From a virus (lineage: Duplodnaviria > Caudoviricetes): 58,999 bases of DNA. The translations under genes and the position numbers were made by a program. Location of the stretch: IMG/VR virus record IMGVR_UViG_3300010966_000080, positions 1 through 58,999 of that record; one strand, written 5' to 3'. Under the pieces are notes generated by a model. It was not told the DNA's origin. It worked only from the letters and a program-made list of their open reading frames with translations, and did not search any database. This document shows, piece after piece, positions 2,420-58,767 of this stretch. Numbering within the stretch: position 1 is the first letter of the stretch; each line of letters begins with the position of its first letter.

Positions 2420-2899
2420 ATGACCGCCAAGAGTACCCGCAAGCCGCGCGCGATGAAGTGCCGGACACCTGAGATCGCCACGCGCATCATCGAGGGGCTG
2501 TGTGACGGCGTGACCATGCGCGCGCTGTGTCGGCAGGAGGGCATGCCGAACTGGCGCACGGTGTACGATTGGCTCGAGCAAGACCCCGACTTCGCCGCAC
2601 AGGTCGCCCGCGCTCGGGATTTGGGCTACGAGGCCCTCGCCGAGGACATCTTCGACATCGCGGACAACACCAAGGCGATCAGCGAGCACGTGCAGGTCTC
2701 CAAGCTGCGCATCGACACGCGCCTCAAGCTGCTGGCCTGCTGGAGCCCCAAGCGCTACGGCCCGAAGCAGACGCTCGACGTCGGGAACAAGGACGGCGAG
2801 AAGCTGCAGGTAGAAAACAGCGCGGACAACATGGCCACCGCAGCGGCCTTCGCCGTGGCCGCCGCCACTGCGATGCGTGACGCCAAGCGCGGCGAGTGA
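2420..2899 (+). CDS. terS: terminase small subunit
   Basis: HTH-like IIEGLCDGVTMRALCRQEGMPNWRTVYDW, A.DI.DIAD and KLRIDTRLKLL...P.RYG (Sf6 gp1-like); directly before terL. Confidence 0.85.
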   Translation: MTAKSTRKPRAMKCRTPEIATRIIEGLCDGVTMRALCRQEGMPNWRTVYDWLEQDPDFAAQVARARDLGYEALAEDIFDIADNTKAISEHVQVSKLRIDTRLKLLACWSPKRYGPKQTLDVGNKDGEKLQVENSADNMATAAAFAVAAATAMRDAKRGE

Positions 2900-5178
2900 A
2901 CCTCAGCGACCATGAAGCACTGAAGCGCCAGCTCGCGGCGCTGCCGCTGGAGGTGCTCGCCTACGTCGACTGGCAGCGCCGGTGGACTGAGACCGCACGC
3001 CCGCCGCAGATCCCGCCCAAGACGGACTGGAGCGAGTGCGGGTACCTCGCCGGGCGGGGGTTCGGGAAGACACGCGTCGGGGCTGAGTGGATCACCCGCG
3101 CGGGTTACGAAGACCCGTCCGGCTTCGACAGTTGCGTCATCGCGCCGACCTATCAGGACGTTAAGATCACGTGCTTTGAGGGCGAGAGCGGGATCCTGTC
3201 CGTCCTGCCGCCGGAGCTACTGGTAGAACACAACAAGACGGACATGGTCATCCGCCTGCGCAACATCGCGGGCGGGGTCAGCACGATCCGTGGCTTCACC
3301 GCCGAGAAGCCGGAGCGACTGCGCGGCCCGCAGCACACGCGAGCGTGGTGTTTTGTCGCCGGGACGCTGGTGGCCACACCGCAAGGCGACGTGCCGATTG
3401 AAACGCTGCGGCCCGGAGACGTTGTGCTCACCCGCAAAGGCGCGCGGCGCGTCTCCGCCAACTCTTGTCGCGAGGCAGAGGTCGGCAGCGTAAAGTTTTC
3501 CACTGGTGCCGTTCTGCTTGGCACGACGGACCATCCCGTGTACACACCGGCTGGGTGGACGGACTTGTCCCGTCTGCGTGTCGGAGACGAAGTATGTGCG
3601 ATAGCTGTGTGGAATGGGGTGGCAAACGGTGGCATCGCTACCGGAACGGGTATTACGAGCGAACTGACAAGTCCGTCACGCCGAAGCGGACTGTCAGGCT
3701 TCATCGAGTTATCTGGGAGAGCGCGAACGGCCATATCCCAGATGGTTGGCAAGTTCACCACCGTGACGAGGACGTTGGGCACAACGCTCTTGCCAACCTT
3801 GAGTGCATCCCGGCTGGCGAGCATCGCCGCATCCATCTGTCGAGCAAACCCATCCCTAAGCCTGACTGGGAGCGGAAGCCGCTTGTCGAGTGCAATTGCG
3901 CCGATTGCGGCACGGCGATCCAACGCAAGCGACCCGGCCCGCAGCCCGTTTGCTCCAAGTGCCAGTGCAAGCGTGCTGAAGCTAGGCGCAAGCGCACCAG
4001 TGTTTGCGCGAACTGCGGCGCGCACTTCCAATCCCGCGCCGGAAACTTCTGCAGCCAGCGTTGCGTCAACTTGGCAACCGCAGGGGCTACAACCCGTGTA
4101 TTGCCTCAAGGTCGAGGGCGAGCCTGAGTACTTCGCCAACGGCATTCTCGTACACAACTGCGACGAGCTGGCCGCGTGGCAGTACGATCAGGACACGTGG
4201 GACATGGCCATGATGGGCATGCGCCTCGGCGAGCGCCCGCAGGTGCTGTGGACGACGACGCCCAAGCCCAAGGAGATGATCCGCAAGCTGAGCGCGCCGA
4301 AGGCGGGGCGCGTCATCATTCGCGGCTCGACCTTCGACAACCGCGCCAACCTGCCGCAGAGCTTCTTCGACCAGCTCGAGCAGTACGAGGGCACCACCCT
4401 CGGTCGCCAAGAGATCTACGGCGAGCTCATCGACCCGGAAGAGAGCGGCATCGTCAAGCGCAGCCAATTCAGGCTGTGGCCCGCCGCGCACCCGCTGCCG
4501 AAGTTCGAGTTCATCGTCATGAGCCTCGACACCGCCTTCACCGAGAAGACCTACGACAAGAAGTCCGGCGACAGCGACAGCACGGCCTGCGTGGTCATGG
4601 GCGTCTTCTTCCACGAGAAGCGCTTCAATGCCATGGTGCTCGACTGCTGGGAGGACCAGCTCGGCATGCCCGCCCTGATCCGGCGCGTGCGTAAGGAAAT
4701 GAACACGCCCTACGGCGACGATGACGACGTGGCGTTGATCAAGCCGCTGTTCGGCTCGAGCAAGCCGCTGACCAGTGGCCACAAGCCTGACGTCCTGCTG
4801 ATCGAGGACAAGGGCAGCGGCATCAGCCTGCGCCAGATGCTCGAGGCCGAGGGCATCGACGCCTACGCGTACAATCCCGGCCGCGCCGACAAGCTGACCC
4901 GCCTGCACATGGTCACGCCCGCACTGTCGCGCAAGCTCGTGTGGCTGCCCGAGAGCGACAAACACCCCGGTCGACCGCGCAACTGGATCGAGCCGATGCT
5001 GGCGCAACTCTGCGCGTTCACCGGTCCGGGGAGCATCAAGCACGACGACTACGTCGACGCCTTTGCGCAGGCGCTCAGGCTCATGATGGACAAACGCTGG
5101 CTTGATCCTGTAAAAGCCAAAAAAGACGAACGCGACACCCCGCCACCCAAGGTGGTGGTCAACCCGTACACGCAGTAG
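2896..5178 (+). CDS. terL: terminase large subunit containing an intein
   Basis: Walker A AGRGFGKT; Walker B AW|CDE split by the intein; TTTPK motif; RNase H-like SLDTA...IEDKGSG...HDDYVDA. Confidence 0.95.
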   Translation: MNLSDHEALKRQLAALPLEVLAYVDWQRRWTETARPPQIPPKTDWSECGYLAGRGFGKTRVGAEWITRAGYEDPSGFDSCVIAPTYQDVKITCFEGESGILSVLPPELLVEHNKTDMVIRLRNIAGGVSTIRGFTAEKPERLRGPQHTRAWCFVAGTLVATPQGDVPIETLRPGDVVLTRKGARRVSANSCREAEVGSVKFSTGAVLLGTTDHPVYTPAGWTDLSRLRVGDEVCAIAVWNGVANGGIATGTGITSELTSPSRRSGLSGFIELSGRARTAISQMVGKFTTVTRTLGTTLLPTLSASRLASIAASICRANPSLSLTGSGSRLSSAIAPIAARRSNASDPARSPFAPSASASVLKLGASAPVFARTAARTSNPAPETSAASVASTWQPQGLQPVYCLKVEGEPEYFANGILVHNCDELAAWQYDQDTWDMAMMGMRLGERPQVLWTTTPKPKEMIRKLSAPKAGRVIIRGSTFDNRANLPQSFFDQLEQYEGTTLGRQEIYGELIDPEESGIVKRSQFRLWPAAHPLPKFEFIVMSLDTAFTEKTYDKKSGDSDSTACVVMGVFFHEKRFNAMVLDCWEDQLGMPALIRRVRKEMNTPYGDDDDVALIKPLFGSSKPLTSGHKPDVLLIEDKGSGISLRQMLEAEGIDAYAYNPGRADKLTRLHMVTPALSRKLVWLPESDKHPGRPRNWIEPMLAQLCAFTGPGSIKHDDYVDAFAQALRLMMDKRWLDPVKAKKDERDTPPPKVVVNPYTQ
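3349..4158 (+). mobile_element. intein (270 aa) in TerL Walker B
   Basis: Block A CFVAGTLVAT, block B GTTDHPVY, block F PVYCLKVEGEPEYFANG, block G ILVHN, +1 Cys; removal restores HTRAWCDELAAW. Confidence 0.93.
3594..4127 (+). CDS. HNH endonuclease with zinc ribbons, nested in another frame inside the intein
   Basis: GGAG-N7-ATG; LHRVIWE...IPDGWQVHHRDED..HNALANLECI...EH..IH; CxxC clusters CADC, CSKC, CANC, FCSQRC. Confidence 0.85.
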   Translation: MCDSCVEWGGKRWHRYRNGYYERTDKSVTPKRTVRLHRVIWESANGHIPDGWQVHHRDEDVGHNALANLECIPAGEHRRIHLSSKPIPKPDWERKPLVECNCADCGTAIQRKRPGPQPVCSKCQCKRAEARRKRTSVCANCGAHFQSRAGNFCSQRCVNLATAGATTRVLPQGRGRA

Positions 5179-5189
5179 GACCACACGCC

Positions 5190-7742
5190 ATGGATGAAGA
5201 CGAATACGGCGAGATCGAGCAGCCCAACGGCGAGCGAGTGGACGACGAGTACGGCGAGATGATCGAGCTGGTGCCCGACGCCGAGCCGGACGTCGAGGAC
5301 ACCGAAGACGGTGGCGCCATCGTGCGCCTCGACGACGAGAGCGAGGCCCGCTCGGACGACTTCTACGCCAACCTCGCCGACGACATGTCCGACAGCGACC
5401 TGTCGACGCTGGCCTCACGCTACGTCGACCTGATCGGCAAGGACAAGGACGCGCGCAAGAAGCGAGACGAGCAGTACGAGGAGGGCATCCGCCGCACCGG
5501 TCTGGGCGAGGACGCGCCCGGCGGCGCGCAGTTCGAAGGCGCGAGCAAGGTCGTGCATCCGATGCTGACCGAGGCCTGTGTCGACTTCGCCAGCCGCGCG
5601 ATCAAGGAGCTCTTCCCGCCCGACGGGCCGGTCCGCGACAAGATCGTCGGCGACGTCACCGGCGAGAAGGTCAAGAAGGCCAAGCGCAAGACCGACTTCA
5701 TGAACTGGCAGCTCACCACCCAGAGCACCGAGTTCCGCGCGGAGCTCGAGCAGCTCCTGACGCAGGTGCCACTGGGCGGCGCGCAGTACCTCAAGGCCTC
5801 GTGGAACGAGCAGCGCAACCGGCCGAACTTCCTGTTCGTCGCCATCGACGACATGTTGCTGCCCTTCGCGGCCACCAACTTCTACAGCGCCCAGCGCAAG
5901 ACCCACGTGCAGTACCTGACGCAGCTCGACTACGAGAAGCGCGTCACCTCCGGCATGTACCGCGACGCCGACATCGGCCCGGCCAGCCAAGAGCCTGAGA
6001 CCAGCATCGTCGAGCGCGCCAACGACAAGATCGAGGGGCGCAGCGCGACCAGCTACAACGAGGACGGCCTGCGCACCGTCTACGAGATCTACACCTTCGA
6101 CGACATCGAGGGCGAGGGGCCGCTGCCCTACATCATCTCCATCGACAAGCCCTCCAACAAGGTGCTCGCGATCTACCGCAACTGGGACGAACTGGACGAG
6201 GCTCAAGAGGAGCTCCAGTGGTTCGTCGAGTTCCCCTTCGTCCCGTGGCGTGGCGCCTACCCCATAGGCCTGCCGCACATGGTCGGGGGACTGTCCGCCG
6301 CCGCGACCGGGGCACTGCGCGCGTTGCTTGATGCGGCTCACATCAGCAACAGCCAGACCATGGTCAAGCTGAAGGGCGGCAGCCGGGGCGGGCAGTCTCT
6401 TGAGATCCAGCCGACCCAGACCGTCGAGATCGAGGGCGGCCTCGCCTCCGACGACATCCGCAAGCTGATCATGCCGCTGCCGTACAATCCGCCGAATGCG
6501 GTACTGTTCAGCCTGCTCGGCTTCCTGATCGACGCGGGTAAGGGTGTCATCCGCACCACGATGGATGACGTCTCGAACTCCAACCCCAACGCCCCGGTCG
6601 GCACGACGCTGGCCAAGCTCGAGCAGGGCATGGTGGTCTACAGCGCCATCCACGCCCGCCTGCACAACTCCATGGCCAAGCTGCTGGGCATCCTGCACCG
6701 CCTGAACGCCATGTACCTCGACGACGAGGAGGAGCAGGAGGAAATCGGCGACGAGATCGCCACCCGCGCCGACTTCGAGGGGCCGCTCGACGTCGTGCCG
6801 GTCAGCGACCCCAACATCTTCAGCGAGGCGCAACGCTTCGCGCAGGTGCAGGCCATCGAGCAGCGCGCGCAGGCGATGCCGCAGATGTACAACCTGCGTA
6901 AGGTCGAGGAGCGCATCCTCGACACGCTGAAAATTCCCAATGCGAAGGAGCTGCTCGCCCCGGCCATCGAGCCGAAGGAGCAGAACGCCGTCAACGAGAA
7001 CGTGGCCGCGACACTGGGCCGGGCCGTGCTGGCCTTCCCCGATCAGGACCACATCGCGCACCTCAAGACGCACCTCGCGTACATGACGAACCCGATATTC
7101 GGCGGCAATCCGCTGATCGCCCCGTCCTACATCCCGCCGATGCTGAACCACATCAAGGAGCACATCGCCCTGTGGTACGCGTCGAGCGTCTTCGACGTGT
7201 CGAACGAGGCCACCGGCGGCGACATCGGCGAGGACATGAAGGCGATGAAGGACGACCCCGAGGGCCGCAAGTCGCTCGACCGCATGCTCGCCGAGGCCGC
7301 GTCGCTGGTCCTCGACCACGGCAACGAGATCTTCAAGGCGCTGCCGCCGGTGATCCAGCAGGCTCAGGCCATGATGCAGCAGCTCGCGCCGCCCCCGCCG
7401 ATGGATCCGACACAGGCCGCCATGCAGGCCGCCCAGCTCCAGAACCAGACGGCGCAGCAGCGGCTGCAGCTCGAGGGGCAGAAGGTCCAGCAGCAGGGCC
7501 AGATCAAGCAGGCCGAGATGCAGCAGGATCAGGCCGAGGCGCAGCAGGAGCTGCAGGCCCGCATGGCGCTGGAGATGCAGCGCCAGAATGCCGAGGACAA
7601 TCGCACCGCAGCCGAGCTGCAGGCGCGCATGGCCATGAACACCGAAGACAATCGGACGGCGCTCGAGTTGGCGTCGGCGGAGATTGCCAGCGGCGAACGA
7701 GTTGCGGTCTCGACAGGGACAGGCATCAACCCCGGAGTGTAA
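5190..7742 (+). CDS. portal protein
   Basis: 850 aa after terL; HPMLTEACVDF, APVGTTLA.LEQ, VVPVSDPNIFS; Q-rich C-terminal coiled coil like the P22 barrel. Confidence 0.88.
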   Translation: MDEDEYGEIEQPNGERVDDEYGEMIELVPDAEPDVEDTEDGGAIVRLDDESEARSDDFYANLADDMSDSDLSTLASRYVDLIGKDKDARKKRDEQYEEGIRRTGLGEDAPGGAQFEGASKVVHPMLTEACVDFASRAIKELFPPDGPVRDKIVGDVTGEKVKKAKRKTDFMNWQLTTQSTEFRAELEQLLTQVPLGGAQYLKASWNEQRNRPNFLFVAIDDMLLPFAATNFYSAQRKTHVQYLTQLDYEKRVTSGMYRDADIGPASQEPETSIVERANDKIEGRSATSYNEDGLRTVYEIYTFDDIEGEGPLPYIISIDKPSNKVLAIYRNWDELDEAQEELQWFVEFPFVPWRGAYPIGLPHMVGGLSAAATGALRALLDAAHISNSQTMVKLKGGSRGGQSLEIQPTQTVEIEGGLASDDIRKLIMPLPYNPPNAVLFSLLGFLIDAGKGVIRTTMDDVSNSNPNAPVGTTLAKLEQGMVVYSAIHARLHNSMAKLLGILHRLNAMYLDDEEEQEEIGDEIATRADFEGPLDVVPVSDPNIFSEAQRFAQVQAIEQRAQAMPQMYNLRKVEERILDTLKIPNAKELLAPAIEPKEQNAVNENVAATLGRAVLAFPDQDHIAHLKTHLAYMTNPIFGGNPLIAPSYIPPMLNHIKEHIALWYASSVFDVSNEATGGDIGEDMKAMKDDPEGRKSLDRMLAEAASLVLDHGNEIFKALPPVIQQAQAMMQQLAPPPPMDPTQAAMQAAQLQNQTAQQRLQLEGQKVQQQGQIKQAEMQQDQAEAQQELQARMALEMQRQNAEDNRTAAELQARMAMNTEDNRTALELASAEIASGERVAVSTGTGINPGV

Positions 7743-10426: not shown

Positions 10427-11002
10427 ATGTCTACCACGGTCAATGCACCGTTCGGACTTCGCCCGGCATACAGCCCGAGTGGTGTGATCCGTCCCACCGC
10501 TTTCAGTATCGCCAGTGGCTACGCTTCGAACATCTTCCAGAACCAGCCGGTTCGTATCGCCCCCACCACCGGTGGCGGTGAAACCGAAGGCACCATCGTC
10601 GCTGCGGCGGTCGGTGCGGCCTTCGTCGGCGCCTTTCAGGGCGTCGAGTTCACCGACAGCGACGGACGCCGCCGCGTCTCCAACAAGTGGACCGCGTCCG
10701 CGACTGCAACGGACATCGTGGCTTACGTCACGCTGGACCCGACCATCGTGTACGAGATCCAGTCGGATGCCGCCCTTGCGGTCGCTGACATTGGCAAGCA
10801 GTACGACCTGACTGCCATCAGCGGCAACACCACGACGGGTCTCTCGTCGCAGGCGTTGGGCGTCTCCACTGCGGCAGCCAATGCCTCGGTCCGCCTCATC
10901 GGGATCACTCCCGGTCCCGACAACAATTGGGGTGACACTTACGTCATCGCTCAGGTCCAGATCAGCGAACACCAGATGGTTGCTGATAAGGCCGCATTCT
11001 AA
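10427..11002 (+). CDS. putative capsid decoration/minor capsid protein
   Basis: N-terminal NAPFGLRP, small-residue beta-rich sequence, immediately before the MCP. Confidence 0.6.
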   Translation: MSTTVNAPFGLRPAYSPSGVIRPTAFSIASGYASNIFQNQPVRIAPTTGGGETEGTIVAAAVGAAFVGAFQGVEFTDSDGRRRVSNKWTASATATDIVAYVTLDPTIVYEIQSDAALAVADIGKQYDLTAISGNTTTGLSSQALGVSTAAANASVRLIGITPGPDNNWGDTYVIAQVQISEHQMVADKAAF

Positions 11003-41294: not shown

Positions 41295-41636
41295 TCACCG
41301 GCCCTCTCCCTTGGCCTCAGCCAGCAGCGCCGTGTAGGCGATAAGATCCTCGAAGCTGTCGGCGTGGTAGCCCCCTCGGGTGAAGCCGCGCACAGCCTTC
41401 AGTGTGGTCATGAACAGCCAGCCCTCGCTCTCGGTCAGGTCGCGGCCGGTGATGGCGTTGAACGCCGCCACGGTCTTGCCCATGGAGCGCTCGCCCTCCG
41501 GCGCGTCGTACGTCTTGCCGCGCTCGTGCATGTGCGCCGCCGCGCGGCCGAGCAGCTCCGGTGCCTTGACTGGCGGCTCCGGAACTACGGCCAGTGATAC
41601 GGCCTCTTCCAGCACGTGGTCTTCGGTATTGGTCAT
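41295..41636 (-). CDS. DUF6378-like protein
   Basis: ERG..YD.P.GERSM...V.AFN.ITG..LTE..GW.FM..LK..R......DS..D..AY.AL. Confidence 0.7.
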   Translation of the reverse strand: MTNTEDHVLEEAVSLAVVPEPPVKAPELLGRAAAHMHERGKTYDAPEGERSMGKTVAAFNAITGRDLTESEGWLFMTTLKAVRGFTRGGYHADSFEDLIAYTALLAEAKGEGR

Positions 41637-42997
41637 GTCTGTTTCCTTCGTTTCAACGCCTCGAGCAATACGTCTTGGACGCTGCGCTTCGAGGCCAGTC
41701 GCTCCAGCACCACCTCGTCGACCGTGTCGCGGGTGATGATCGGGTACACGAGGCAGGGCCGGTCGTGGCCTGCCTGCTTCTGGCGCATCGGCCCGATGCG
41801 CTCGATGATCTGCAGGTACTCCTCGAGGTTCCAGTTCACGCCGAAAAAGGCGAGGATGTTGCCCCCGTCGGCGAGGTTCAATCCGTGTCCCGCCGACGCA
41901 GGGTGAGCGAATAGTAGCGAGATTTTCCCGGCATTCCACTCCCTGATCGTATTAGGGTCAGCGTCCAACACCCGGCCTTTAGGGTAACGATCCCGTAGGC
42001 GTTGCAGATCATGTTTGAAGTGATAGGCCACGAGCACAGGCGCGCCATTCGCCTCTTCAATGACGCTGTCGAGCGCCGCCAGCTTGGCATCGTGTACGGC
42101 CTCCCAGTTGCCTTCGTCGTCGATGTACATCGCCCCGTTGGCGAGCTGCAAACACTTCTGCGTCTTGACCGCCGCATTGACCGCCTCGACGCCCGCCTCC
42201 TCGAGCTCCGCGTACATGTTGTCTTCCATGTCGCGGTAGAGCGCGCGGGCCTTGGGCGGCAGCTCGACCAGCAGCGGGTTGACCAGCGGCTGCTCGACGT
42301 CGAGGCCCTTGACGGTCAGGCAGACGTCGCGGAGCAGATCCTGCACCTCGCCCTGCGTGTGGGCGTACGGCTCCAAGCTGAAGCCGTCGTAGCCCTTGCG
42401 GAACCAGCGCTCAGTGAAGGCGCTGAATGTCCGGCCCAGCCGCTGCCCCTTGTCGATGAACCACGCCTGCCCCCACAAATCTTTCACGCCATTCGGCGCG
42501 GGCGTCCCTGTCAGGCCGATGAAGCGGCTGCCGGGCGCGTGGGCCACCTTGCCCAGCGCGGACGCCCTCGCGCCGCCCTGCCGGATCCGGAAGGACTTCA
42601 GGCGGGTGACCTCGTCGGCGATGATCGTCTTGAACGGCCACTCGCCGACGGCCGCGCACAGCCAACTGAGGTTGTCGTAATTGGTCGTGTAGATGTCGGC
42701 CTCTTGCGCCAGCGCCCGCTCTCGCTGCTTGGGCGTGCCGGTGATCACGGACACGCGCAGACCCTGCAGGTGCGCCCACTTGGTCACCTCCTCGGGCCAC
42801 GTCGAGCGCGCCACGCGCAGCGGCGCGAGCACCAGCACGGGGTAGATGTCCTCGACCACGCTCAGGCGCTCGAGGGCCGTCAGGGTCGAGACCGTCTTAC
42901 CGCCGCCCATGGGCGCCCAGACCATGCCGCGCCGGGTGGCGCAGATGAAGTCGATCACCTCTTCCTGATAGTCGTGGGGCGTGAAGGTGCGGGTCAC
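41633..42997 (-). CDS. SNF2-family helicase
   Basis: PHDYQ, MGGGKT, IIADE, GLTGTP, HPASAGHGLNL, Q..ERI. Confidence 0.9.
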   Translation of the reverse strand: MTRTFTPHDYQEEVIDFICATRRGMVWAPMGGGKTVSTLTALERLSVVEDIYPVLVLAPLRVARSTWPEEVTKWAHLQGLRVSVITGTPKQRERALAQEADIYTTNYDNLSWLCAAVGEWPFKTIIADEVTRLKSFRIRQGGARASALGKVAHAPGSRFIGLTGTPAPNGVKDLWGQAWFIDKGQRLGRTFSAFTERWFRKGYDGFSLEPYAHTQGEVQDLLRDVCLTVKGLDVEQPLVNPLLVELPPKARALYRDMEDNMYAELEEAGVEAVNAAVKTQKCLQLANGAMYIDDEGNWEAVHDAKLAALDSVIEEANGAPVLVAYHFKHDLQRLRDRYPKGRVLDADPNTIREWNAGKISLLFAHPASAGHGLNLADGGNILAFFGVNWNLEEYLQIIERIGPMRQKQAGHDRPCLVYPIITRDTVDEVVLERLASKRSVQDVLLEALKRRKQT

Positions 42998-43173
42998 TCG
43001 CAGCCCTCGCACATGTGCAGCCACTCGCCGCAGTCCAGCACGGCGCGACCGCCCTGCCGCTTGAAGTCGGCGAGGGCGTCGTGGAAGTCGTCGGTCTCGG
43101 CCTCATACTCCTCGCCGCACGCGTCACAGGTGAAGGTGATCGTCTCGTCTCGGTGGTTGCGTTTGTGGCTCAT
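42994..43173 (-). CDS. small Zn-ribbon protein
   Basis: CDAC...H.CEGC; AAGGA RBS. Confidence 0.65.
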   Translation of the reverse strand: MSHKRNHRDETITFTCDACGEEYEAETDDFHDALADFKRQGGRAVLDCGEWLHMCEGCE

Positions 43174-43350: not shown

Positions 43351-43393
43351 GTTGCTGATGAGCCTCCCTAGCCCATGCAATCGGGGGTTGCAA
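43351..43393 (-). promoter_or_regulatory. early promoter/leader, copy 3
   Basis: TTGCAA-N7-TTGCA...ATCAGCAAC-GAGGAG. Confidence 0.75.
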
Positions 43394-43402
43394 GCATTTA
43401 AA

Positions 43403-43972
43403 TCAGCGCGACGCGATTTGTTTTTTCGCGCGTCGCGTGAGGCCTTTAGCGAAGCGGTGTTTTCCCGGCAGTTTCAATTGCACGAAGCCCAACGCTTCTA
43501 TTTCGGCTCTGCGCAGTGCTTTCTTGCCAGAATGAAACGCGCGGCGGGAGACAACAGCCCCGGAGGCGCTGCGGTACGCTCTATTCTCTTCGCACTGGCC
43601 TAAGTGCTTCCAACTCGCCGCGCGATAAACGCCCCCAAGGTGGCCGACATTAGGATCGGCGTATGAGACCAGCGCCTCCACTTCCGGGTGCATTGTTCGG
43701 AACAGGCGCGTGGTAGCGCAGAGTGCTTGGGTAAGCAGATTAGGGGCGTGGCTGTCCGGTGCCCACAAGCGGGAGAGTTCCCAGACCACGTTGTCGCGCC
43801 CAAGCAACCAACGGCTTATGTTCTTGTTTGCGGGTATCGAAAACACAACGATGACCGGCCCGTACAGTATGTAGACGGACTTCCCGCTGGGTACGCTCTT
43901 CGTGTAATGGTTGGCTTCTATCACAGCGCGAGCGGTGTCGCGCTCGACCCCGACTGCGTGCGCGGCGATCAT
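43403..43972 (-). CDS. Mom-like (GNAT-fold) DNA modification protein
   Basis: I..NHY, WELSRLW, LVSYADP..GH.G.VY.A..W..LG, K.RF. Confidence 0.75.
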   Translation of the reverse strand: MIAAHAVGVERDTARAVIEANHYTKSVPSGKSVYILYGPVIVVFSIPANKNISRWLLGRDNVVWELSRLWAPDSHAPNLLTQALCATTRLFRTMHPEVEALVSYADPNVGHLGGVYRAASWKHLGQCEENRAYRSASGAVVSRRAFHSGKKALRRAEIEALGFVQLKLPGKHRFAKGLTRRAKKQIASR

Positions 43973-44123: not shown

Positions 44124-44166
44124 GTTGCTGATGACCCCTCCTAGCCAATGCAATCAGGGGTTGCAA
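44124..44166 (-). promoter_or_regulatory. early promoter/leader, copy 4
   Basis: TTGCAA-N7-TTGCA...ATCAGCAAC; 41/46 identical to copy 3. Confidence 0.75.
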
Positions 44167-44449
44167 GCCCCTTTCTCACCAATTCGACGATTTCTTCGAT
44201 CTCTTCGACTGTCCGCACGATAAACACGGGGAACTGCGCCTCGCGCATGCGCTCGATCTCGCGCTGCTGGTGGCCGCTCAGCCGATCCCCGTCCGCCTTG
44301 ATCTCGACGAAGGCGGCGCGCGGCCACTCCCACCAAATGAAGCAGTCAGGGCAGCCCCGGCGGCCCTCCCAGCGGACCTTGCGGTATTGGCCACCACTGC
44401 CCTGCACGAGGCGCTTCAACCGGTCCTGTAGCTTGCCTGCGGGGGTCAT
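44141..44449 (-). CDS. VRR-NUC nuclease
   Basis: G..GCPD...FVEIKA....LS..Q.RE. Confidence 0.85.
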   Translation of the reverse strand: MTPAGKLQDRLKRLVQGSGGQYRKVRWEGRRGCPDCFIWWEWPRAAFVEIKADGDRLSGHQQREIERMREAQFPVFIVRTVEEIEEIVELVRKGLATPDCIG

Positions 44450-44967
44450 AGCAGCCTCGCAAACTCTTTGGCGTACCGCCTCGCGCCCTCGGCGTAGGCT
44501 GCGGCGGCCTCCTCGGTGGTGTCGTAGTGGCCGAGAAAAACCCCTCTACGGTTGTGGCTTATCGTTGCTCGCCACCGGCGGGCGGCTTTATCCCAGCATA
44601 CGCCCTTGAAACCGGATTTATTTCTTCGGGAAAGCTTGGCGTTGTACTGATTTTGCTTATTCGTCGCCAATCTGAGATTCGCCCAAGCGTTGTTGTGGGC
44701 GTTACCATCTCGGTGGTCGACATCACCCTCGGGCCAACATCCGGTAACAAAGAGCCAAGCAAGCCGATGGAGCTTATAATGCCTCCCCCCGATTTTTACC
44801 GACCGGCACCTCGGCGAGTTGTTACCGGCCTCGGATCCCGCGTATACAGCGTTCCAAGTGCTGCAGGCACGGTCCGAGGAAAAATGGCTTCGGGGGCGAC
44901 GGTGCCAAGTAAACACACCTGTCTCCGCGTCATAGGTCAAGCAAGTGCTGGCATATTCTAAGTCCAC
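44446..44967 (-). CDS. HNH endonuclease with AP2 domain
   Basis: YD.ETG.F.W; HRLAW...DH.DG...NN...NLR; N.SG.KGV.W.....W.A.I.....LG.Y...EEAA.AY. Confidence 0.9.
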   Translation of the reverse strand: MDLEYASTCLTYDAETGVFTWHRRPRSHFSSDRACSTWNAVYAGSEAGNNSPRCRSVKIGGRHYKLHRLAWLFVTGCWPEGDVDHRDGNAHNNAWANLRLATNKQNQYNAKLSRRNKSGFKGVCWDKAARRWRATISHNRRGVFLGHYDTTEEAAAAYAEGARRYAKEFARLL

Positions 44968-44976
44968 AATAGACCT

Positions 44977-46962
44977 CTACTTCCTGTACCTGTCTGTTTC
45001 CATACCATCGGCGGCCAGCGGTATGCCCGGCGCCCACGGCACCTCGGTGGACATCATGGAGGCCAGCGCTTCGAAGGTGAAGTCGGGGCTGTCAGGAACC
45101 TCGCACACGAGCTCGTCGTGGACCCGCAAAACTACCGGGTACCCAGAGAGGCTCGCCCTTCGGAACCCCCGCATAAACACATCGCGGCTGGCCGCTTGGC
45201 AGGCCTGCTCAAAGAACTTGCCTCCGTAGGTGTCTACCCGCTGCCATTTACGCGTGTACTGATTTACACCCTCGTATGTAAGCGACCCGCTTTCGCTGAT
45301 AGCGGGGCGACAGTAGCTGATGAAGCGACCGCTAGGCAGCCGCATGCGCAGCCAGAAAATACCGCCAGCGTCCGTTATGGTATCAAACCGAAGGACACCC
45401 CTTACGTCGAAGCTCTCGCCCGGAGAGCGCAGCGCGGACCTAGCGGCACCCTCCAGATCGTACCACATAGATTTTATTGCAGGGTGCGCCTTGCGCCACG
45501 CCTGCACGATAGCTCCTATTTCCTCGTCAGACAGGGTGTCCGCAAGCGCCCCCGCCATAGCGCGGAAAGCACCGACGCCGCCCTGATACTGCAGGCTCAG
45601 CTCCTGCACCTTACCGATCTGACGCATGCTGCCATCGCCGTGCTTCTTGTTGTGGAGCACGTCCTCGATAGTCACGCCGAACGACCGGGCATATGCGACG
45701 ACGTACAGGTCGGCGCCCTCCCCCCTGTCAAAGGCGCGGAAAGCCTTCAACTTCCATTCCTCGCTAGCTAGCCATGCGGCCATGCGCCCCTCGATGTTAG
45801 ACAAGTCTGCCACGACAAACTTGCAGCCTTTGGTAGGAACAAGTACGCCTCGCACAGCGCTGGCGCAAAGTTGGCTCACGTTGTCAAACAGTAGGTCTTC
45901 GCAGTCCAGTTTCATGGCCTCGATGCCAAGAGCTATTTTCTCATAAGGCATTGAACTTCTTGGCAAGTTTTGCGGCTGGAAGATTTTTCCGCTATCGCGA
46001 CCTGTACGCCCCGCCCCGCAGAACTGGATGATGCCTCGCAACCGACCATCACTCGAAACCGCATCTAAGAGCGTCTTGTACTTAGCCGGGGAGGTTGCGG
46101 CGGCCTGCTGCCGTATCTCCAAAAGCTCTCTCGCTTCGGGCGTGAGATTTTGCGATGTGAGCATCTTGCTTACTGTGGCCCCCCGAAGATCCGATACGTC
46201 TACACCCAAATCGGCCTGAAGGTGGCCGAGCAGGGCTCCTCGCTGCGTGGCCGAGCCAACCGCTCCCGAGGTCAGAACGTTCGCACGAGCGGCCAGAGAT
46301 CGCGTAGCTCGTTCAAAAGCTCGGAGAGCGGATCGTGCGAGTTCAGTATCGACGGCGATACCACTGTCTGCAGCTCCTTGGTCAAGTCGCCAGAGTTGGC
46401 GCTCACCGTCAGTATAATTCCATCGTGGGAGACGTCCGCGTACGCCTCGCATAGCGTCCACATCGAGCCGGGCGTATTCGATGAAGCGCTGCCACTCATC
46501 CGGGTGTGTCTCTCTCGTCGCGCGCCGCAGCTTCATCTTCGCAGGGCGGGGCTTGCTGAAGATGTTTATCAGCTTCTTGCCGTCTTTGTCTTTAGCCTTG
46601 TCCACCGGCACGCCCAACACGTCGCACAACACACCCAGAGAGCCGGGCAGGCTGTGCTGCAGCGCGATCACCATGGTGTCAGTGATTTTATCCACAGGAA
46701 TAATTACGCCACGGTGGCGCAGCACCGTGCGGTCGAATGCGGAGTTGTGGATAACTACTTCGTCGGCACTGTCGATCATGTGCTGCAACGAGGCCAACTG
46801 GCTTCCGCGCGTTTCGGGGTCCGAGGTGTCCCAGACCACCACTGGCTCGTCATCGACGGCCAGCGCGACGAGCAACACCTCGGCGTTCTCGGCGTAGCGG
46901 TGCGCGCCGTTCTTGATCGGCGTCTCGCAAAAGGTTTCAAGGTCGAGATAAAGTGTAAGCAC
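44977..46962 (-). CDS. DNA polymerase family A with 3'-5' exonuclease
   Basis: YLDLETF, HNSAFD, motif A ADLSNIEGR, motif B RQIGKVQEL..QY, motif C VHDE; GTG at 46962 after GGAGGAG. Confidence 0.92.
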   Translation of the reverse strand: MLTLYLDLETFCETPIKNGAHRYAENAEVLLVALAVDDEPVVVWDTSDPETRGSQLASLQHMIDSADEVVIHNSAFDRTVLRHRGVIIPVDKITDTMVIALQHSLPGSLGVLCDVLGVPVDKAKDKDGKKLINIFSKPRPAKMKLRRATRETHPDEWQRFIEYARLDVDAMRGVRGRLPRWNYTDGERQLWRLDQGAADSGIAVDTELARSALRAFERATRSLAARANVLTSGAVGSATQRGALLGHLQADLGVDVSDLRGATVSKMLTSQNLTPEARELLEIRQQAAATSPAKYKTLLDAVSSDGRLRGIIQFCGAGRTGRDSGKIFQPQNLPRSSMPYEKIALGIEAMKLDCEDLLFDNVSQLCASAVRGVLVPTKGCKFVVADLSNIEGRMAAWLASEEWKLKAFRAFDRGEGADLYVVAYARSFGVTIEDVLHNKKHGDGSMRQIGKVQELSLQYQGGVGAFRAMAGALADTLSDEEIGAIVQAWRKAHPAIKSMWYDLEGAARSALRSPGESFDVRGVLRFDTITDAGGIFWLRMRLPSGRFISYCRPAISESGSLTYEGVNQYTRKWQRVDTYGGKFFEQACQAASRDVFMRGFRRASLSGYPVVLRVHDELVCEVPDSPDFTFEALASMMSTEVPWAPGIPLAADGMETDRYRK

Positions 46963-47105
46963 GGTCGCTCCTCCGTTCAGGAAGAGTGCGCGAGAGTTAT
47001 CAGCAACGGAGGAGCGAACCCACGTTCTCTCGCGCACCCTACCTGAAAGGAGGGACGCACCAGCCTAGCAAACATCGCCGGAAGGGCAAAGTGCTGGTGC
47101 GCCCC
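46963..47105 (-). ncRNA. structured leader / small RNA upstream of the DNA polymerase
   Basis: Two 13-14 bp hairpins, each extended by a G.U pair only on the minus strand; loop complementary to the pol RBS. Confidence 0.6.
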
Positions 47106-47119
47106 AAATAGACCGCCTG

Positions 47120-47374
47120 TTACAGCAAGTCCATACCCAATTCGCTGGCATAGATCTGCAGGAGAGCATTGCGCTCCTTGAGATCGTCCGGCTTCATCTT
47201 GCGGAGGCGGATCACCTCACGCATGATCTTGGCGTCGAAACCGACCGCCTTGGCCTCCGCGAAGACATCCTTGATGTCGTCCGCCACGCCCTTCTTCTCT
47301 TCATTCAAACGCTCAACGCGCTCGACGAGGAGGCGGAGGCGGTCGTTGACCCCCTCCTCCGGTTCGCGCGCCAT
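47120..47374 (-). CDS. gapR: GapR/DUF2312 DNA-binding protein
   Basis: LRLLVERVERL.EEKK..ADDIKDVFAEAK..GFD.KI.R.VIRLRK. Confidence 0.9.
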   Translation of the reverse strand: MAREPEEGVNDRLRLLVERVERLNEEKKGVADDIKDVFAEAKAVGFDAKIMREVIRLRKMKPDDLKERNALLQIYASELGMDLL

Positions 47375-47376
47375 CG

Positions 47377-47961
47377 TCACAGGACGTCGTCCGCGTCGGC
47401 CTTGGCCTTCGCCATGCCAGCGAACTCGTCGGCCGAGGCTGGGCTCGATCCGCCGCCGAAGTTTTCGCCCTCGCCGGTCAGCATGACGCCGCGCAGCGAG
47501 CAGTTGACGCGGCGGCCCCACTTGTTGTCCTGCGCCCAGATCTCCACCGAGGCGTTGACACGCGCGCCGGAGAACGCTTGACGCTCGATGTCGGCCTTGC
47601 CAGACAGCTCCTCGCCGTACTGGTTGAAGACCGTCGGCTGGGACTTGGCATTGCGCGCCGACAGGACGTGTGTGCCCTCGAAGCCCTGATAGGGTTCGCC
47701 GGTCTTTTTCGAGCGGTAGACCTTCTTGACGAAGGCGACCTTGCCGTCTTCGACGAGCATGGCGAGGACGCTGTCCGCCTTGTCTTTCCACGCCTCCTTG
47801 GCCTCCGCCATCATGGCGGCCTCGATAGCCTTCTGGTGGTCGCCGTTGATGGTGATGGGGAACTTGGCACCGTAGGCCGGTTCGCCTTCGCCGAAAGCCT
47901 GCGGCTCGGCGAGTGCGGGGAATGCCATGGTGACGCCCTTGAGCATGATGCGAGTAGCCAT
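47377..47961 (-). CDS. ssDNA-binding protein (DUF2815-like)
   Basis: FP.L.EP; SG..VNA....WAQDN.WG.R.N..L.GV....GE.FGGG; acidic tail. Confidence 0.8.
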   Translation of the reverse strand: MATRIMLKGVTMAFPALAEPQAFGEGEPAYGAKFPITINGDHQKAIEAAMMAEAKEAWKDKADSVLAMLVEDGKVAFVKKVYRSKKTGEPYQGFEGTHVLSARNAKSQPTVFNQYGEELSGKADIERQAFSGARVNASVEIWAQDNKWGRRVNCSLRGVMLTGEGENFGGGSSPASADEFAGMAKAKADADDVL

Positions 47962-50415: not shown

Positions 50416-50458
50416 GTTGCTGATGAACTGTAGATAGCACCGCAACGCGGGATTGCAA
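50416..50458 (-). promoter_or_regulatory. early promoter/leader, copy 5
   Basis: TTGCAA-N7-TTGCG...ATCAGCAAC. Confidence 0.75.
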
Positions 50459-53216: not shown

Positions 53217-53956
53217 ACTGCCTCCACTGAAAGGAACTCATCGCGCAGCAGCTCGGCCAGCTTGTCGAAGGTGCGGGCGTCGCCGACCGGGCGGTAGCCG
53301 CCGTCGCTGCAGTAGCGGGTGACGTCGAAGCTGCGCCCGAGATCTTTGATGAAGACGTTGGTCCCGTCGTCGCGGAGGTAGGCCTCGAACACGGGCGGCT
53401 CCTCCTCGCTGCAGATGTCGCCATCCCAGTAGACCTCAATGTCTTTGATGCCCGCGCGGGCGAGGGCGGCGTTGATGCGCTCTTCGGTGTATTTGGGGTT
53501 GTCCACGGTTCGCTCCTGTTGCTGATCCATCCCACCTACACCATGCAATTCGACATTGCAAGAGGGTGTTGGAAGATCATTCACCGTCGCGAGGGCGATC
53601 CGGCACACAACTTCGATGAAGTCCGCGTCGCGTTCCATGATGGTCTGCGCGCGGCGCGATCCGTGGATGACCGTGCTGTGGTCGCGCCGCATGACGCGCC
53701 CGATGCCCGAGTATGAGGGCTTCTTTCCGCTGAGCTCGGCGCGCAGCCACAAGCCCGCGTAGAGCGCCAGTCGGGCGCGGTGAACGCGCGCGAAGCGGAT
53801 GTCTTCGAAGATCTCCGCAGGCTTGATGCAGAATATGTGCGCGGCGAAGGCCACGACCTCGAGCCTCGTCATCAGCGCCTCTGGTGCCGAAACGGGATTT
53901 CCCGTTTCGGGGGCCTCAGCCAGCGCGATCAGTTCTTCGTCGGTCATGGGCGGCAT
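53213..53956 (-). CDS. DnaA domain IV-like HTH protein reading through into a second domain (internal GTG start at 53506)
   Basis: AR..........SY..IGR...RDHSTVIHG; internal promoter and AGGAG RBS. Confidence 0.6.
   Translation of the reverse strand: MPPMTDEELIALAEAPETGNPVSAPEALMTRLEVVAFAAHIFCIKPAEIFEDIRFARVHRARLALYAGLWLRAELSGKKPSYSGIGRVMRRDHSTVIHGSRRAQTIMERDADFIEVVCRIALATVNDLPTPSCNVELHGVGGMDQQQERTVDNPKYTEERINAALARAGIKDIEVYWDGDICSEEEPPVFEAYLRDDGTNVFIKDLGRSFDVTRYCSDGGYRPVGDARTFDKLAELLRDEFLSVEAV
53518..53561 (-). promoter_or_regulatory. early promoter/leader, copy 6
   Basis: TTGCAA-N7-TTGCA...ATCAGCAAC-AGGAG. Confidence 0.7.
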
Positions 53957-58723: not shown

Positions 58724-58767
58724 GTTGCTGATGGGCAGTATATGGCATGTGCAATTGCAGGTTGCAA
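58724..58767 (-). promoter_or_regulatory. early promoter/leader, copy 7
   Basis: TTGCAA-N7-TTGCA...ATCAGCAAC. Confidence 0.75.

Follow-up and report, generated by a model that had tools for sequence, protein, structure and literature searches.

Phage temporal programmes are usually put down to proteins, including sigma factors, anti-sigma factors, repressors and nucleases such as T4 RegB. Antisense control is exemplified by the P1/P7 c4 antisense RNA and the CI RNA of satellite P4, structured immunity RNAs with short loops complementary to several sites of their own mRNA, among them ribosome binding site (RBS) regions; regulator and targets can share one transcript in these systems. In synthetic toehold switches, and in the opening of the rpoS leader by small RNAs, an RBS-sequestering hairpin is addressed by a trans RNA that alters translation via a single-stranded docking site. 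The element compared here with such systems is the two-hairpin 5' leader of the DNA polymerase (pol) module of an uncultured freshwater phage. It is located on the minus strand at 47105-46963 of IMG/VR record IMGVR_UViG_3300010966_000080, a complete virus of 58,999 bp (CheckV completeness 100) that was analysed over its full length and is referred to as the window. The second hairpin (hairpin 2) holds the Shine-Dalgarno (SD) sequence of pol in its stem, while its apical loop displays the antisense of a 9-nucleotide (nt) leader shared by six promoter-like regions of the same genome.

Like the c4 and CI RNAs, the element is a structured phage RNA whose loop complements multiple sites on the phage's own mRNAs. 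It differs from them in that the loop lies in the 5' leader of a polymerase module and the targets are the invariant 5'-terminal 9 nt of at least six operons; furthermore, nothing around it suggests lysogeny or immunity, it is unrelated to them by sequence or by Rfam, and a small RNA processed from it would be putative. Unlike in a toehold switch or the rpoS leader, the docking site is the apical loop and not a 5' tail, and the SD lies in the base of the stem and not in the loop; the trigger, unlike that of a toehold switch, has no complementarity to the stem. A hairpin RNA operator is described as overlapping the RBS of the T4/RB69 gene 43 DNA polymerase mRNA and controlling its initiation (PMC3014915, in part). 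The hairpin over the RBS of a phage DNA polymerase mRNA is thus a shared feature, but the ligand in T4 is the family-B polymerase itself, whereas here a much longer stem precedes a family-A polymerase, and the conserved loop suggests that the partner is RNA (PMC3014915, in part). T4 RegB, which inactivates early mRNAs at GGAG SD sites, can be considered a functional analogue of the early shut-off proposed below, in that many early initiation regions are hit at once; RegB is however a protein endoribonuclease, the agent proposed here an antisense RNA loop (PMC3014915, in part). Finally, T7 phi10 abortive transcripts act in trans on the T-phi terminator hairpin, and in both phages RNA from the very start of transcription units is complementary to a distant hairpin (PMC2952870, in part). 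The T7 target is a terminator stem and the effect antitermination, in contrast to the loop of an SD-locking hairpin with putatively abortive or full mRNAs as partners (PMC2952870, in part). No description of the element was found in literature on phage translational operators, abortive transcripts or P4 CI RNA, supplements aside, and the papers listed as containing the 9-mer were unrelated, most of them matching by chance through primers.

Hairpin 2 (46969-47054, minus strand) was located by inverted-repeat search, by folding and by a covariance-model match of 83.0 bits (E 8.4e-20). Its arms, 47053-47027 and 46996-46970, form a 27-nt inverted repeat with 89% complementarity, corresponding to ~25 pairs across 27 positions. 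A 102-nt segment (47056-46955) folds with -54.1 kcal/mol (z -5.1; 0/200 shuffles as good), and the 186-nt leader has a minimum free energy (MFE) of -90.8 kcal/mol (z -6.6). The initial annotation of this DNA had described a 14-bp stem (47040-47027 with 46996-46983, one G.U) enclosing a 30-nt loop (47026-46997), and had proposed that pairing of the loop hides the pol RBS. These coordinates are all correct, but they delimit the inner part only of a stem that continues outward to the 27-nt repeat. The inner stem accounts for -24.0 kcal/mol and the full stem for -45.0, the missed extension thus being worth about -21 kcal/mol. The RBS is indeed hidden, with the SD paired in the stem, but it is mainly the 5' arm and not the loop that provides the lock: in the MFE structure the pol SD GGAGG (46974-46970) is bound by the 5'-arm CCUCC (47053-47049), and the loop is not involved. 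The loop (46997-47026) carries the 9-mer GUUGCUGAU at 47007-46999, with the anti-SD CUCCUCC immediately 5' of it, and its stretch 47020-46999 is the reverse complement of one complete leader. Close strains, represented in four freshwater DNA runs, show just five differences within 46963-47120 and many in the flanking genes; one such variant, loop C to U at 47009, retains a G.U with both SD and leader. No Rfam 15 family reached threshold in a search of 46500-47500 with E up to 10; hits were at chance level, and the best, MIR831, scored 20.1 bits (E 0.22) where its gathering score is 100.

To place the element in its family, loci were collected from polymerase scans, comprising 30 from IMG/VR, 80 from metagenomes and a further 74 and 22 from IMG/VR. 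The two-hairpin fold was the same in 10/10 of the first relatives. A covariance model built on a 12-sequence MAFFT alignment (96.6% paired, 21/26 pairs changed on both sides) was run on 200 of 221 loci and the window, with duplicates and L222-L301 excluded. It was found that hairpin 2 has exactly one site per source in 102 of the 200 sources, always upstream of the pol module; 79 of 101 sequences of element plus translation initiation region (TIR) were unique. In a MAFFT alignment of 49 distinct hairpins, made without reference to the structure, standard pairs occupy 95.6% of 1112 cells, and changes on both sides are seen in 22 of 23 pairs (191 cells). On none of five measures did any of 500 column shuffles match this, and with the partner displaced by 1-3 columns 41.5-57.3% remained paired. 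The SD-pairing columns (3/104, 4/103, 5/102) are paired in 49/49 sequences, so that the SD of the downstream open reading frame (ORF) sits in a conserved, covarying stem, as is characteristic of an SD-sequestering operator. The pol-sense strand scores better in 101 of the 102 sources with a match (83 bits versus 42.6 for antisense in the window), L080 being ambiguous at 25 bits. Furthermore, paired columns contain 51 G.U versus 7 A.C cells, and hence the pol-sense strand is the folding one. A central column (14/93; U.U 47041/46982 in the window) never forms a standard pair, the 49 sequences having C.A (35), U.U (12) or another mismatch (2) there; its flanks (GG/CC and GAG/CUC) are conserved, and the position has the look of a site recognised by a protein or RNase. 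The stem is conserved and covaries in relatives, as do the loop/RBS and loop/leader complementarities described below, on whose conservation and covariation the initial annotation had staked its proposal.

The 9-mer ATCAGCAAC occurs 11 times in the window compared to 0.25 expected, with no shuffle above 2. Eight copies are on the minus strand, of which six, rather than the seven leaders previously counted, are promoter-linked; at 10987 and 56010 neither a promoter nor an SD accompanies the 9-mer. Each of the six leader copies is preceded by a TTGCAA -35-like hexamer at a distance of 34-35 nt and by a -10-like element at ~7 nt; all have the leader start AUCAGCAAC in common and are followed by GGAG and a start codon. 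Transcription presumably starts at or next to the A of ATCAGCAAC, and we infer that the messages of the replication arm are transcribed from the minus strand and early. The leader at 58724-58732 (all six on the minus strand) has a TTGCAA-type promoter and is followed by GGAG and the ATG of an 83-aa ORF. That at 53518-53526, with the form ATCAGCAAC-AGGAGCGAACC-GTG, is closest to the loop complement and heads an operon ending in the primase/helicase gene, while the leader at 50416-50424 belongs to the operon running into the GapR-like gene and pol module. Those at 44124-44132 and 43351-43359 are located upstream of a 45-aa ORF and the Mom-like gene, and of a 53-aa ORF in an operon that includes the DNA helicase, respectively. 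The sixth (1323-1331) forms, together with its GGAG (1319-1331), a perfect 13/13 complement of loop 47011-46999, as originally noted; the near matches reported close to 43350 and 53510 are likewise present, at 43359 and 53526. The loop copy itself (46999-47007) lies on the opposite strand without promoter or ORF and reads ATCAGCAAC, GGAGGAG, CGAACC, the nearest leader being that at 53526. No copy of ATCAGCAAC is present in the leader of the late plus-strand operon at ~1360-1467.

The minus strand holds six near-identical promoter-like regions in all (58770-58724, 53565-53518, 50460-50416, 44170-44124, 43397-43351 and 1400-1323). Each consists of a G-rich run, TTGCAA, often a second TTGCA ~6 nt on as a direct repeat, a -10-like element and ATCAGCAAC, a layout that is the same in relatives; an operator role is conceivable for the repeated TTGCA. 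An extra plus-strand copy of ATCAGCAAC is located at 6342-6350, in the coding stretch ...CAC ATC AGC AAC... of ORF 5190-7742 in the structural arm. This stretch is conserved in three phages (also G001 20415 and G002 20036), and the copy there is probably fortuitous, being maintained through the encoded protein sequence.

Changes in loop and leaders are coupled. The 9-mer is enriched in 5/5 full records of relatives (reversed-pattern control 0), and in the window and these five records the promoter-linked copies are all pol-sense and the loop copy always inverted. A screen of 101 loci for leaders (TTGNNN, 27-31 nt, NYCARCAAC, SD, start codon) yielded 100 distinct sites. Loops with GTTGCTGAT are accompanied by leader ATCAGCAAC at 53 of 62 sites, the others being one base off (7 at position 1). 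In contrast, loops with GTTGTTGGT go with ACCAACAAC at 29 of 32 sites and with ATCAGCAAC at none; in L048/L003, which have the GTTGTTGGT loop, the leader is ACCAACAAAC. Three rarer loops are each matched by their own leader: GTTGCTGAC (L201) by GTCAGCAAC (3/3), GTTGCTGAG (L006) by CTCAGCAAC (1/1), and GTTGTTGAT (L054) by ATCAACAAC (1/1, plus a second site found separately). Both GUUGCUGAU and GUUGUUGGU occur as natural loop types. In a FastTree phylogeny of 79 distinct polymerases the variant loops do not form one clade, requiring 9 changes versus a minimum of 6; GTTGTTGGT and GTTGCTGAC each arose twice, and GTTGCTGAG and GTTGTTGAT each stand beside a GTTGCTGAT sister. Internal loop/leader changes are all transitions on both partners. 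Passage via G.U intermediates is therefore possible, which fits RNA pairing without proving it. An L206-type clade has a loop without GUUGCUGAU that instead complements GGGACAACC, the RBS motif of at least four genes including pol. This unusual extended RBS motif stands 1-3 nt before ATG (L206:2930, 7021, 7427 and 9991, as well as in L207, L205, L203, L208 and L072), and the corresponding hairpin loop holds its complement GGUUGUCCC. Judged from these comparisons of sequence, RNA pairing between loop and leader is well supported, and we consider it likely, although well short of certain, that such pairing is functional.

The predicted energies are consistent with this. Loop duplexes with the six leaders range from -28.3 to -35.2 kcal/mol, all beginning at leader nt 1, compared to -14.9 +/- 3.5 for shuffled leaders; the strongest is formed with the leader at 53518-53526. 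Across 69 relatives, the mean unpaired probability is 0.69 for the loop 9-mer, 0.23 for the rest of the hairpin and 0.78 for leader nt 1-9. The loop is thus exposed and complementary to multiple phage mRNA sites (six leaders and the pol TIR), as expected for an antisense RNA.

The TIR of pol (46960-46977, minus strand) comprises a loop-complementary segment at 46977-46965, which includes the SD (46974-46970), and the GTG start codon at 46962-46960. The perfect 13-nt complement that the initial annotation had pointed out between loop 47017-47005 and 46977-46965, ending 2 nt before the GTG at 46962, was verified. Relatives keep 7-12 nt of loop/TIR complementarity through differing sequences, such as GCUGAUAC with GUAUCAGC (directly before AUG), GCUGAUAA with UUAUCAGC, GCUGAUCCU with AGGAUCAGC, GGUUGUCCCA with UGGGACAACC, and UGGUAAC with GUUACCA. 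Cognate loop/TIR pairs average -15.3 kcal/mol versus -13.0 for permuted pairs, with 0/2000 permutations as low, figures that are rough because automatic loop parsing mis-set several rows. For the window, the loop/SD helix is computed at -23.5 kcal/mol in hairpin form and -30 for the free duplex, and by this estimate the loop/SD contact could replace the outer stem at similar energy. Stems of 14-25 bp contrast with linkers of 5 nt in the window and 0-2 nt in UAUCAGC-type relatives. On geometric grounds, the full loop/SD helix and the stem cannot coexist, since 5 nt of linker are too few to bridge a helix of 14 bp. A pseudoknot or a mutually exclusive fold had been suggested for this region; alternative folds stand, while an H-type pseudoknot would be precluded by the same short linkers.

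Several observations weigh against a functional loop/leader pairing, or limit how much can be read into it. The L070 loop ATTGCTGAT is found with leader ATCAGCAAC, a mismatch at position 9, and the L217 loop GTTGCTGAC with leader TTCAGCAAC; L011/L056 have one ATCAACAAC leader, giving an A.C mismatch versus their GTTGCTGAT loop, and 10 of the 100 leaders depart from the loop complement at position 1 only. The pattern NYCARCAAC used in the screen allows just 16 variants of the 9-mer to be detected and leaves unrelated leaders invisible. Complementarity beyond the 9-mer is weakly cognate-specific (-14.6 versus -12.8, better in 23 of 35 loop groups), and phage mosaicism may blur the independence of changes on the pol tree. 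With respect to the TIR, the cognate partner is the best for only 4 of 61 loops, and the match in the GTTGTTGGT clade is at the level of the SD (6-7 nt). Loop and TIR are ~45 nt apart, and their covariation may therefore partly be linkage. Loop binding alone does not open the SD lock, hence a further step is required. The sequencing runs listed for this sequence are freshwater DNA metagenomes, with no RNA run among them. Finally, identity of the 9-mer in two orientations is equally expected from a DNA-binding protein, and covariation alone cannot discriminate between the two.

This last point leads to the alternative that survives best, namely that ATCAGCAAC is a DNA site bound by a phage or host protein (e.g. 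a repressor at +1 to +9), with the inverted pol copy as a further operator and the RNA complementarity as a by-product. The fixed distance of the motif from the -10 element at every promoter would be accounted for, as would the co-change of all copies in both orientations, which an altered protein specificity could bring about; the covariation is by itself identity of a duplex motif and no proof of RNA pairing. However, the inverted copy is always unpaired in the loop of a covarying stem of RNA type, going by the G.U excess and the unpaired probabilities given above. The loop also holds the whole antisense leader including the anti-SD, beyond the 9-mer, and its complementarity to the TIR reaches lineage-specific flanks outside the 9-mer. 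The motif is moreover not a dyad, and L206-type loops complement the RBS motif GGGACAACC instead. We accordingly regard a purely DNA-level role as quite unlikely.

The first reading in the initial annotation was a strict toehold switch, in which early mRNA 5' ends dock on GCUGAU, displace the structure and free the pol RBS, turning pol on. Loop/leader complementarity and its covariation are in keeping with such a switch, and as the loop matches the pol SD region 13/13, a leader could displace that contact; the loop/SD helix (-23.5 to -30 kcal/mol) is no more stable than the leader/loop duplexes (-28 to -35). Nonetheless, GCUGAU is part of the conserved 9-nt core and not a separate toehold, and the leaders match the loop only, while the SD is bound by the 5' arm in the window MFE and in 49/49 relatives. 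The outer extension of about -21 kcal/mol would remain untouched by a loop-bound leader. Leaders pair from their first nucleotide, so there is nothing 5' of them to invade the 3' arm, and a trigger without stem complementarity cannot drive branch migration. Any trans RNA opening the stem was rejected more generally, with no complement of at least 11 nt to either stem arm found elsewhere in the window. Furthermore, the stems vary freely between phages while leaders stay constant. A strict toehold mechanism is very unlikely on these counts, and leader invasion as a way to free the pol RBS was not borne out.

An equally doubtful alternative is a riboregulator acting in cis only, with the loop pairing just with its own TIR (as an alternative fold or double lock) and seeming anti-leader because the pol TIR resembles leaders. 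Loop/TIR complementarity is widespread and covarying, as this would predict; many lineages have AUCAGC in the TIR immediately before AUG, and in L201 the match falls on AUG-UCAGCAAC itself. Against this, the TIR lacks the 9-mer in the window, L006, L028, L060 and the whole GTTGTTGGT clade, yet the loop 9-mer is still kept and tracks the leaders. Linkers of 0-5 nt versus helices of 14-25 bp also make the full stem incompatible with the loop/TIR helix, going by geometry.

The best explanation overall, which we hold with rather better than even confidence, is that an SD lock and an anti-leader loop are combined in an RNA-RNA regulatory node. Hairpin 2 would act as a translational lock, its 5'-arm CCUCC-type anti-SD binding the SD of the module's first ORF. 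The apical loop would present the unpaired anti-leader GUUGCUGAU, preceded by CUCC, as antisense to the first 9 nt and SD of replication-arm mRNAs coming from the six sigma-70-like promoters, and in most lineages also to the module's own initiation region. Either within the pol mRNA or as a processed, stable hairpin, the loop would pair with the 5' ends of early mRNAs and cover the first-cistron SD of early operons, leading to early shut-off or decay. Abundant leaders would in turn keep the loop away from the pol initiation region, such that early leaders and pol TIR compete for one loop by reciprocal titration and not by strand invasion. The SD lock would be opened in a separate step, probably RNase III cleavage of the long mismatched stem, or by a protein. 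Occurrence of the pairing in vivo, the direction of control (early shut-off or pol release) and processing are all deduced rather than seen, and trans action on the early leaders, the second option of the initial annotation, is at least as likely as pol activation. Given loop/leader pairing, repression of early cistrons comes close to an even chance; relief or activation of pol is distinctly less probable, and another consequence, e.g. on stability or processing, a little less so again.

It is conceivable, though on the whole improbable, that the element forms an RNA-only timer, in which an RNase III-like cut unlocks the pol SD and at the same time frees a ~60-nt antisense stem-loop directed against the 5' ends of all replication-arm operons and the pol TIR. 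If true, one ~60-nt RNA would turn off a whole class of the phage's own messages. In a bolder variant, the ligands would be short abortive or initial transcripts and the loop a direct sensor of promoter firing, which would account for conservation peaking over precisely +1 to +9, a length typical of abortive products.

Hairpin 1 (47052-47105, minus strand), identified as an inverted repeat and in the MFE structure, has a 13-bp GC-rich stem (47105-47093 with 47064-47052) and a 28-nt loop, and abuts hairpin 2. Of 68 distinct upstream regions of relatives, 62 have a corresponding hairpin of at least 9 bp that stops 0-2 nt short of hairpin 2, and metagenome variants at 47102 and 47055 each turn a G.U of its stem into a Watson-Crick pair (A-U or G-C). 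Many hairpin-1 loops of relatives (L127, L022, L007, L070, L102, L217) bear UGGAAGC/GGAAG despite differing stems; the window's own does not. Hairpin 1 is followed by a pyrimidine/U-rich run (mean 5.1 T in the next 12 nt), and an intrinsic-terminator consensus scan returned only a 5-bp site inside its loop (47089-47075), neither hairpin being called because the loops are too large for the consensus. Just before hairpin 1, alignment by eye places CTATTT (47106-47111, minus strand), a version of a conserved CTATAG-type -10-like hexamer, with a TGGACT -35-like hexamer 16 nt upstream of it. In relatives (L003, L007, L028, L063 and others) a CTATAG/TATAAG-type hexamer lies 3-6 nt before hairpin 1, after the stop codon of the GapR-like gene, and TTGGCN or TGGACT 16-18 nt further upstream. 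Such a pair was found in 53 of 68 distinct upstream regions (shuffles: mean 3.0, maximum 8), and the pol module may thus have its own transcript starting at hairpin 1, an RNase E-type site at the hexamer being an alternative to the internal promoter. That the element serves processing, stability or termination only (as RNase III sites, as a stabiliser of the 5' end or as an attenuator separating pol from the GapR-like gene, with a partnerless loop) is highly improbable: phage RNase III sites have stems of at least ~20 bp with an internal non-canonical element, which hairpin 2 resembles in shape with 25-27 bp and a central C.A/U.U, and the U-rich run and promoter-like pair around hairpin 1 would fit, but neither hairpin is called as a terminator and an unpaired, invariant 9-mer that co-changes with the leaders in five types is left unexplained.

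Beyond the SD lock with its anti-leader loop, two further readings of this region were examined and rejected. For a plus-strand gene or promoter using the inverted leader, a TTGCAA-type promoter is missing upstream of 46999, as is a start codon behind GGAGGAG, and this reading was dismissed because the corresponding DNA in relatives is a covarying stem. An upstream ORF whose translation melts the hairpin was dismissed because ORFs crossing it, started by ATG, are present in only 16 of 74 relatives and hence not conserved.

Regardless of which ORF comes first in the module, the order of hairpin, SD in the 3' base, short spacer and start codon is preserved. One clade has the element 300-800 nt upstream of pol, before one or more small ORFs that precede pol or overlap its start. 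At L163:2500-2640 and L165:3077-3220, a ~16-codon ORF (ending ...ILHGKR) that overlaps the pol start comes after the element; this looks like a recombinant of the 'direct' and 'small-ORF-first' layouts, and the short ORF suggests possible translational coupling into pol. Distant relatives with pol ~50% identical (L080:2391-2485, L076:2148-2232 and L220) have a long hairpin with a GGUGAGGC / GCCUCACC core before pol and a larger, unrelated loop, and the SD-locking stem thus seems, on this distribution, older than the anti-leader loop. Searches of cultured phages by blastn ('distant' setting) with the window intergenic region matched flanking genes only, and two other element types had no match among 50,697 phage records. 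Caulobacter phage RW, read by eye, has hairpin 1, while hairpin 2 is replaced by short pairing of the SD region only.

The surrounding genome is organised in two arms. Structural genes occupy the plus strand from ~1.4 to 41 kb, with the terminase large subunit at 2896-5178, and the minus strand carries replication and regulatory genes encoding a helicase (41633-43024), a Mom-like protein, an HNH-AP2 endonuclease, the family-A polymerase, the GapR-like protein, a DUF2800 nuclease and a primase/helicase. The polymerase gene (44977-46962, minus strand) encodes 661 aa with a 3'-5' exonuclease domain (Pfam PF00476 and PF01612); its closest cultured homologues are from Caulobacter phages RW, KcrB, RLK and GB2A (59% identity). 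Upstream of the element, the gene at 47120-47791 (minus strand, stop codon 47122-47120) encodes 223 aa and carries a GapR-like DNA-binding domain at the C-terminal end (PF10073, E 7.4e-30). A Mom-family protein (PF25680, E 4.4e-22) is encoded at 43403-43972 (minus strand), behind the leader at 44132, which suggests that the phage may modify its DNA bases. An endonuclease gene with HNH_3 and AP2 domains (44446-44967, minus strand) directly follows pol, and the pol match in phage RW is split in two pieces, together a hint of possible mobile-element traffic around pol. Close relatives among genome contigs are short or mis-binned contigs of metagenome-assembled genomes only, and no host could be assigned from them; a scan for tRNA and tmRNA genes found none.

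A family of uncultured freshwater phages thus keeps a common 9-nt 5' end of all replication-arm messages and its exact antisense, in the loop of a hairpin that locks pol, together. This co-change of loop and leaders points to a possible RNA-to-RNA control of phage gene timing. It also makes concerted evolution of multiple copies under RNA-RNA complementarity open to testing, with the natural variants as ready compensatory mutations. If the pairing is functional, the family would possess a compact, naturally orthogonal set of riboregulators with at least five matched loop/leader pairs, and a new viral coupling of early transcription, replication-gene translation and early shut-off.

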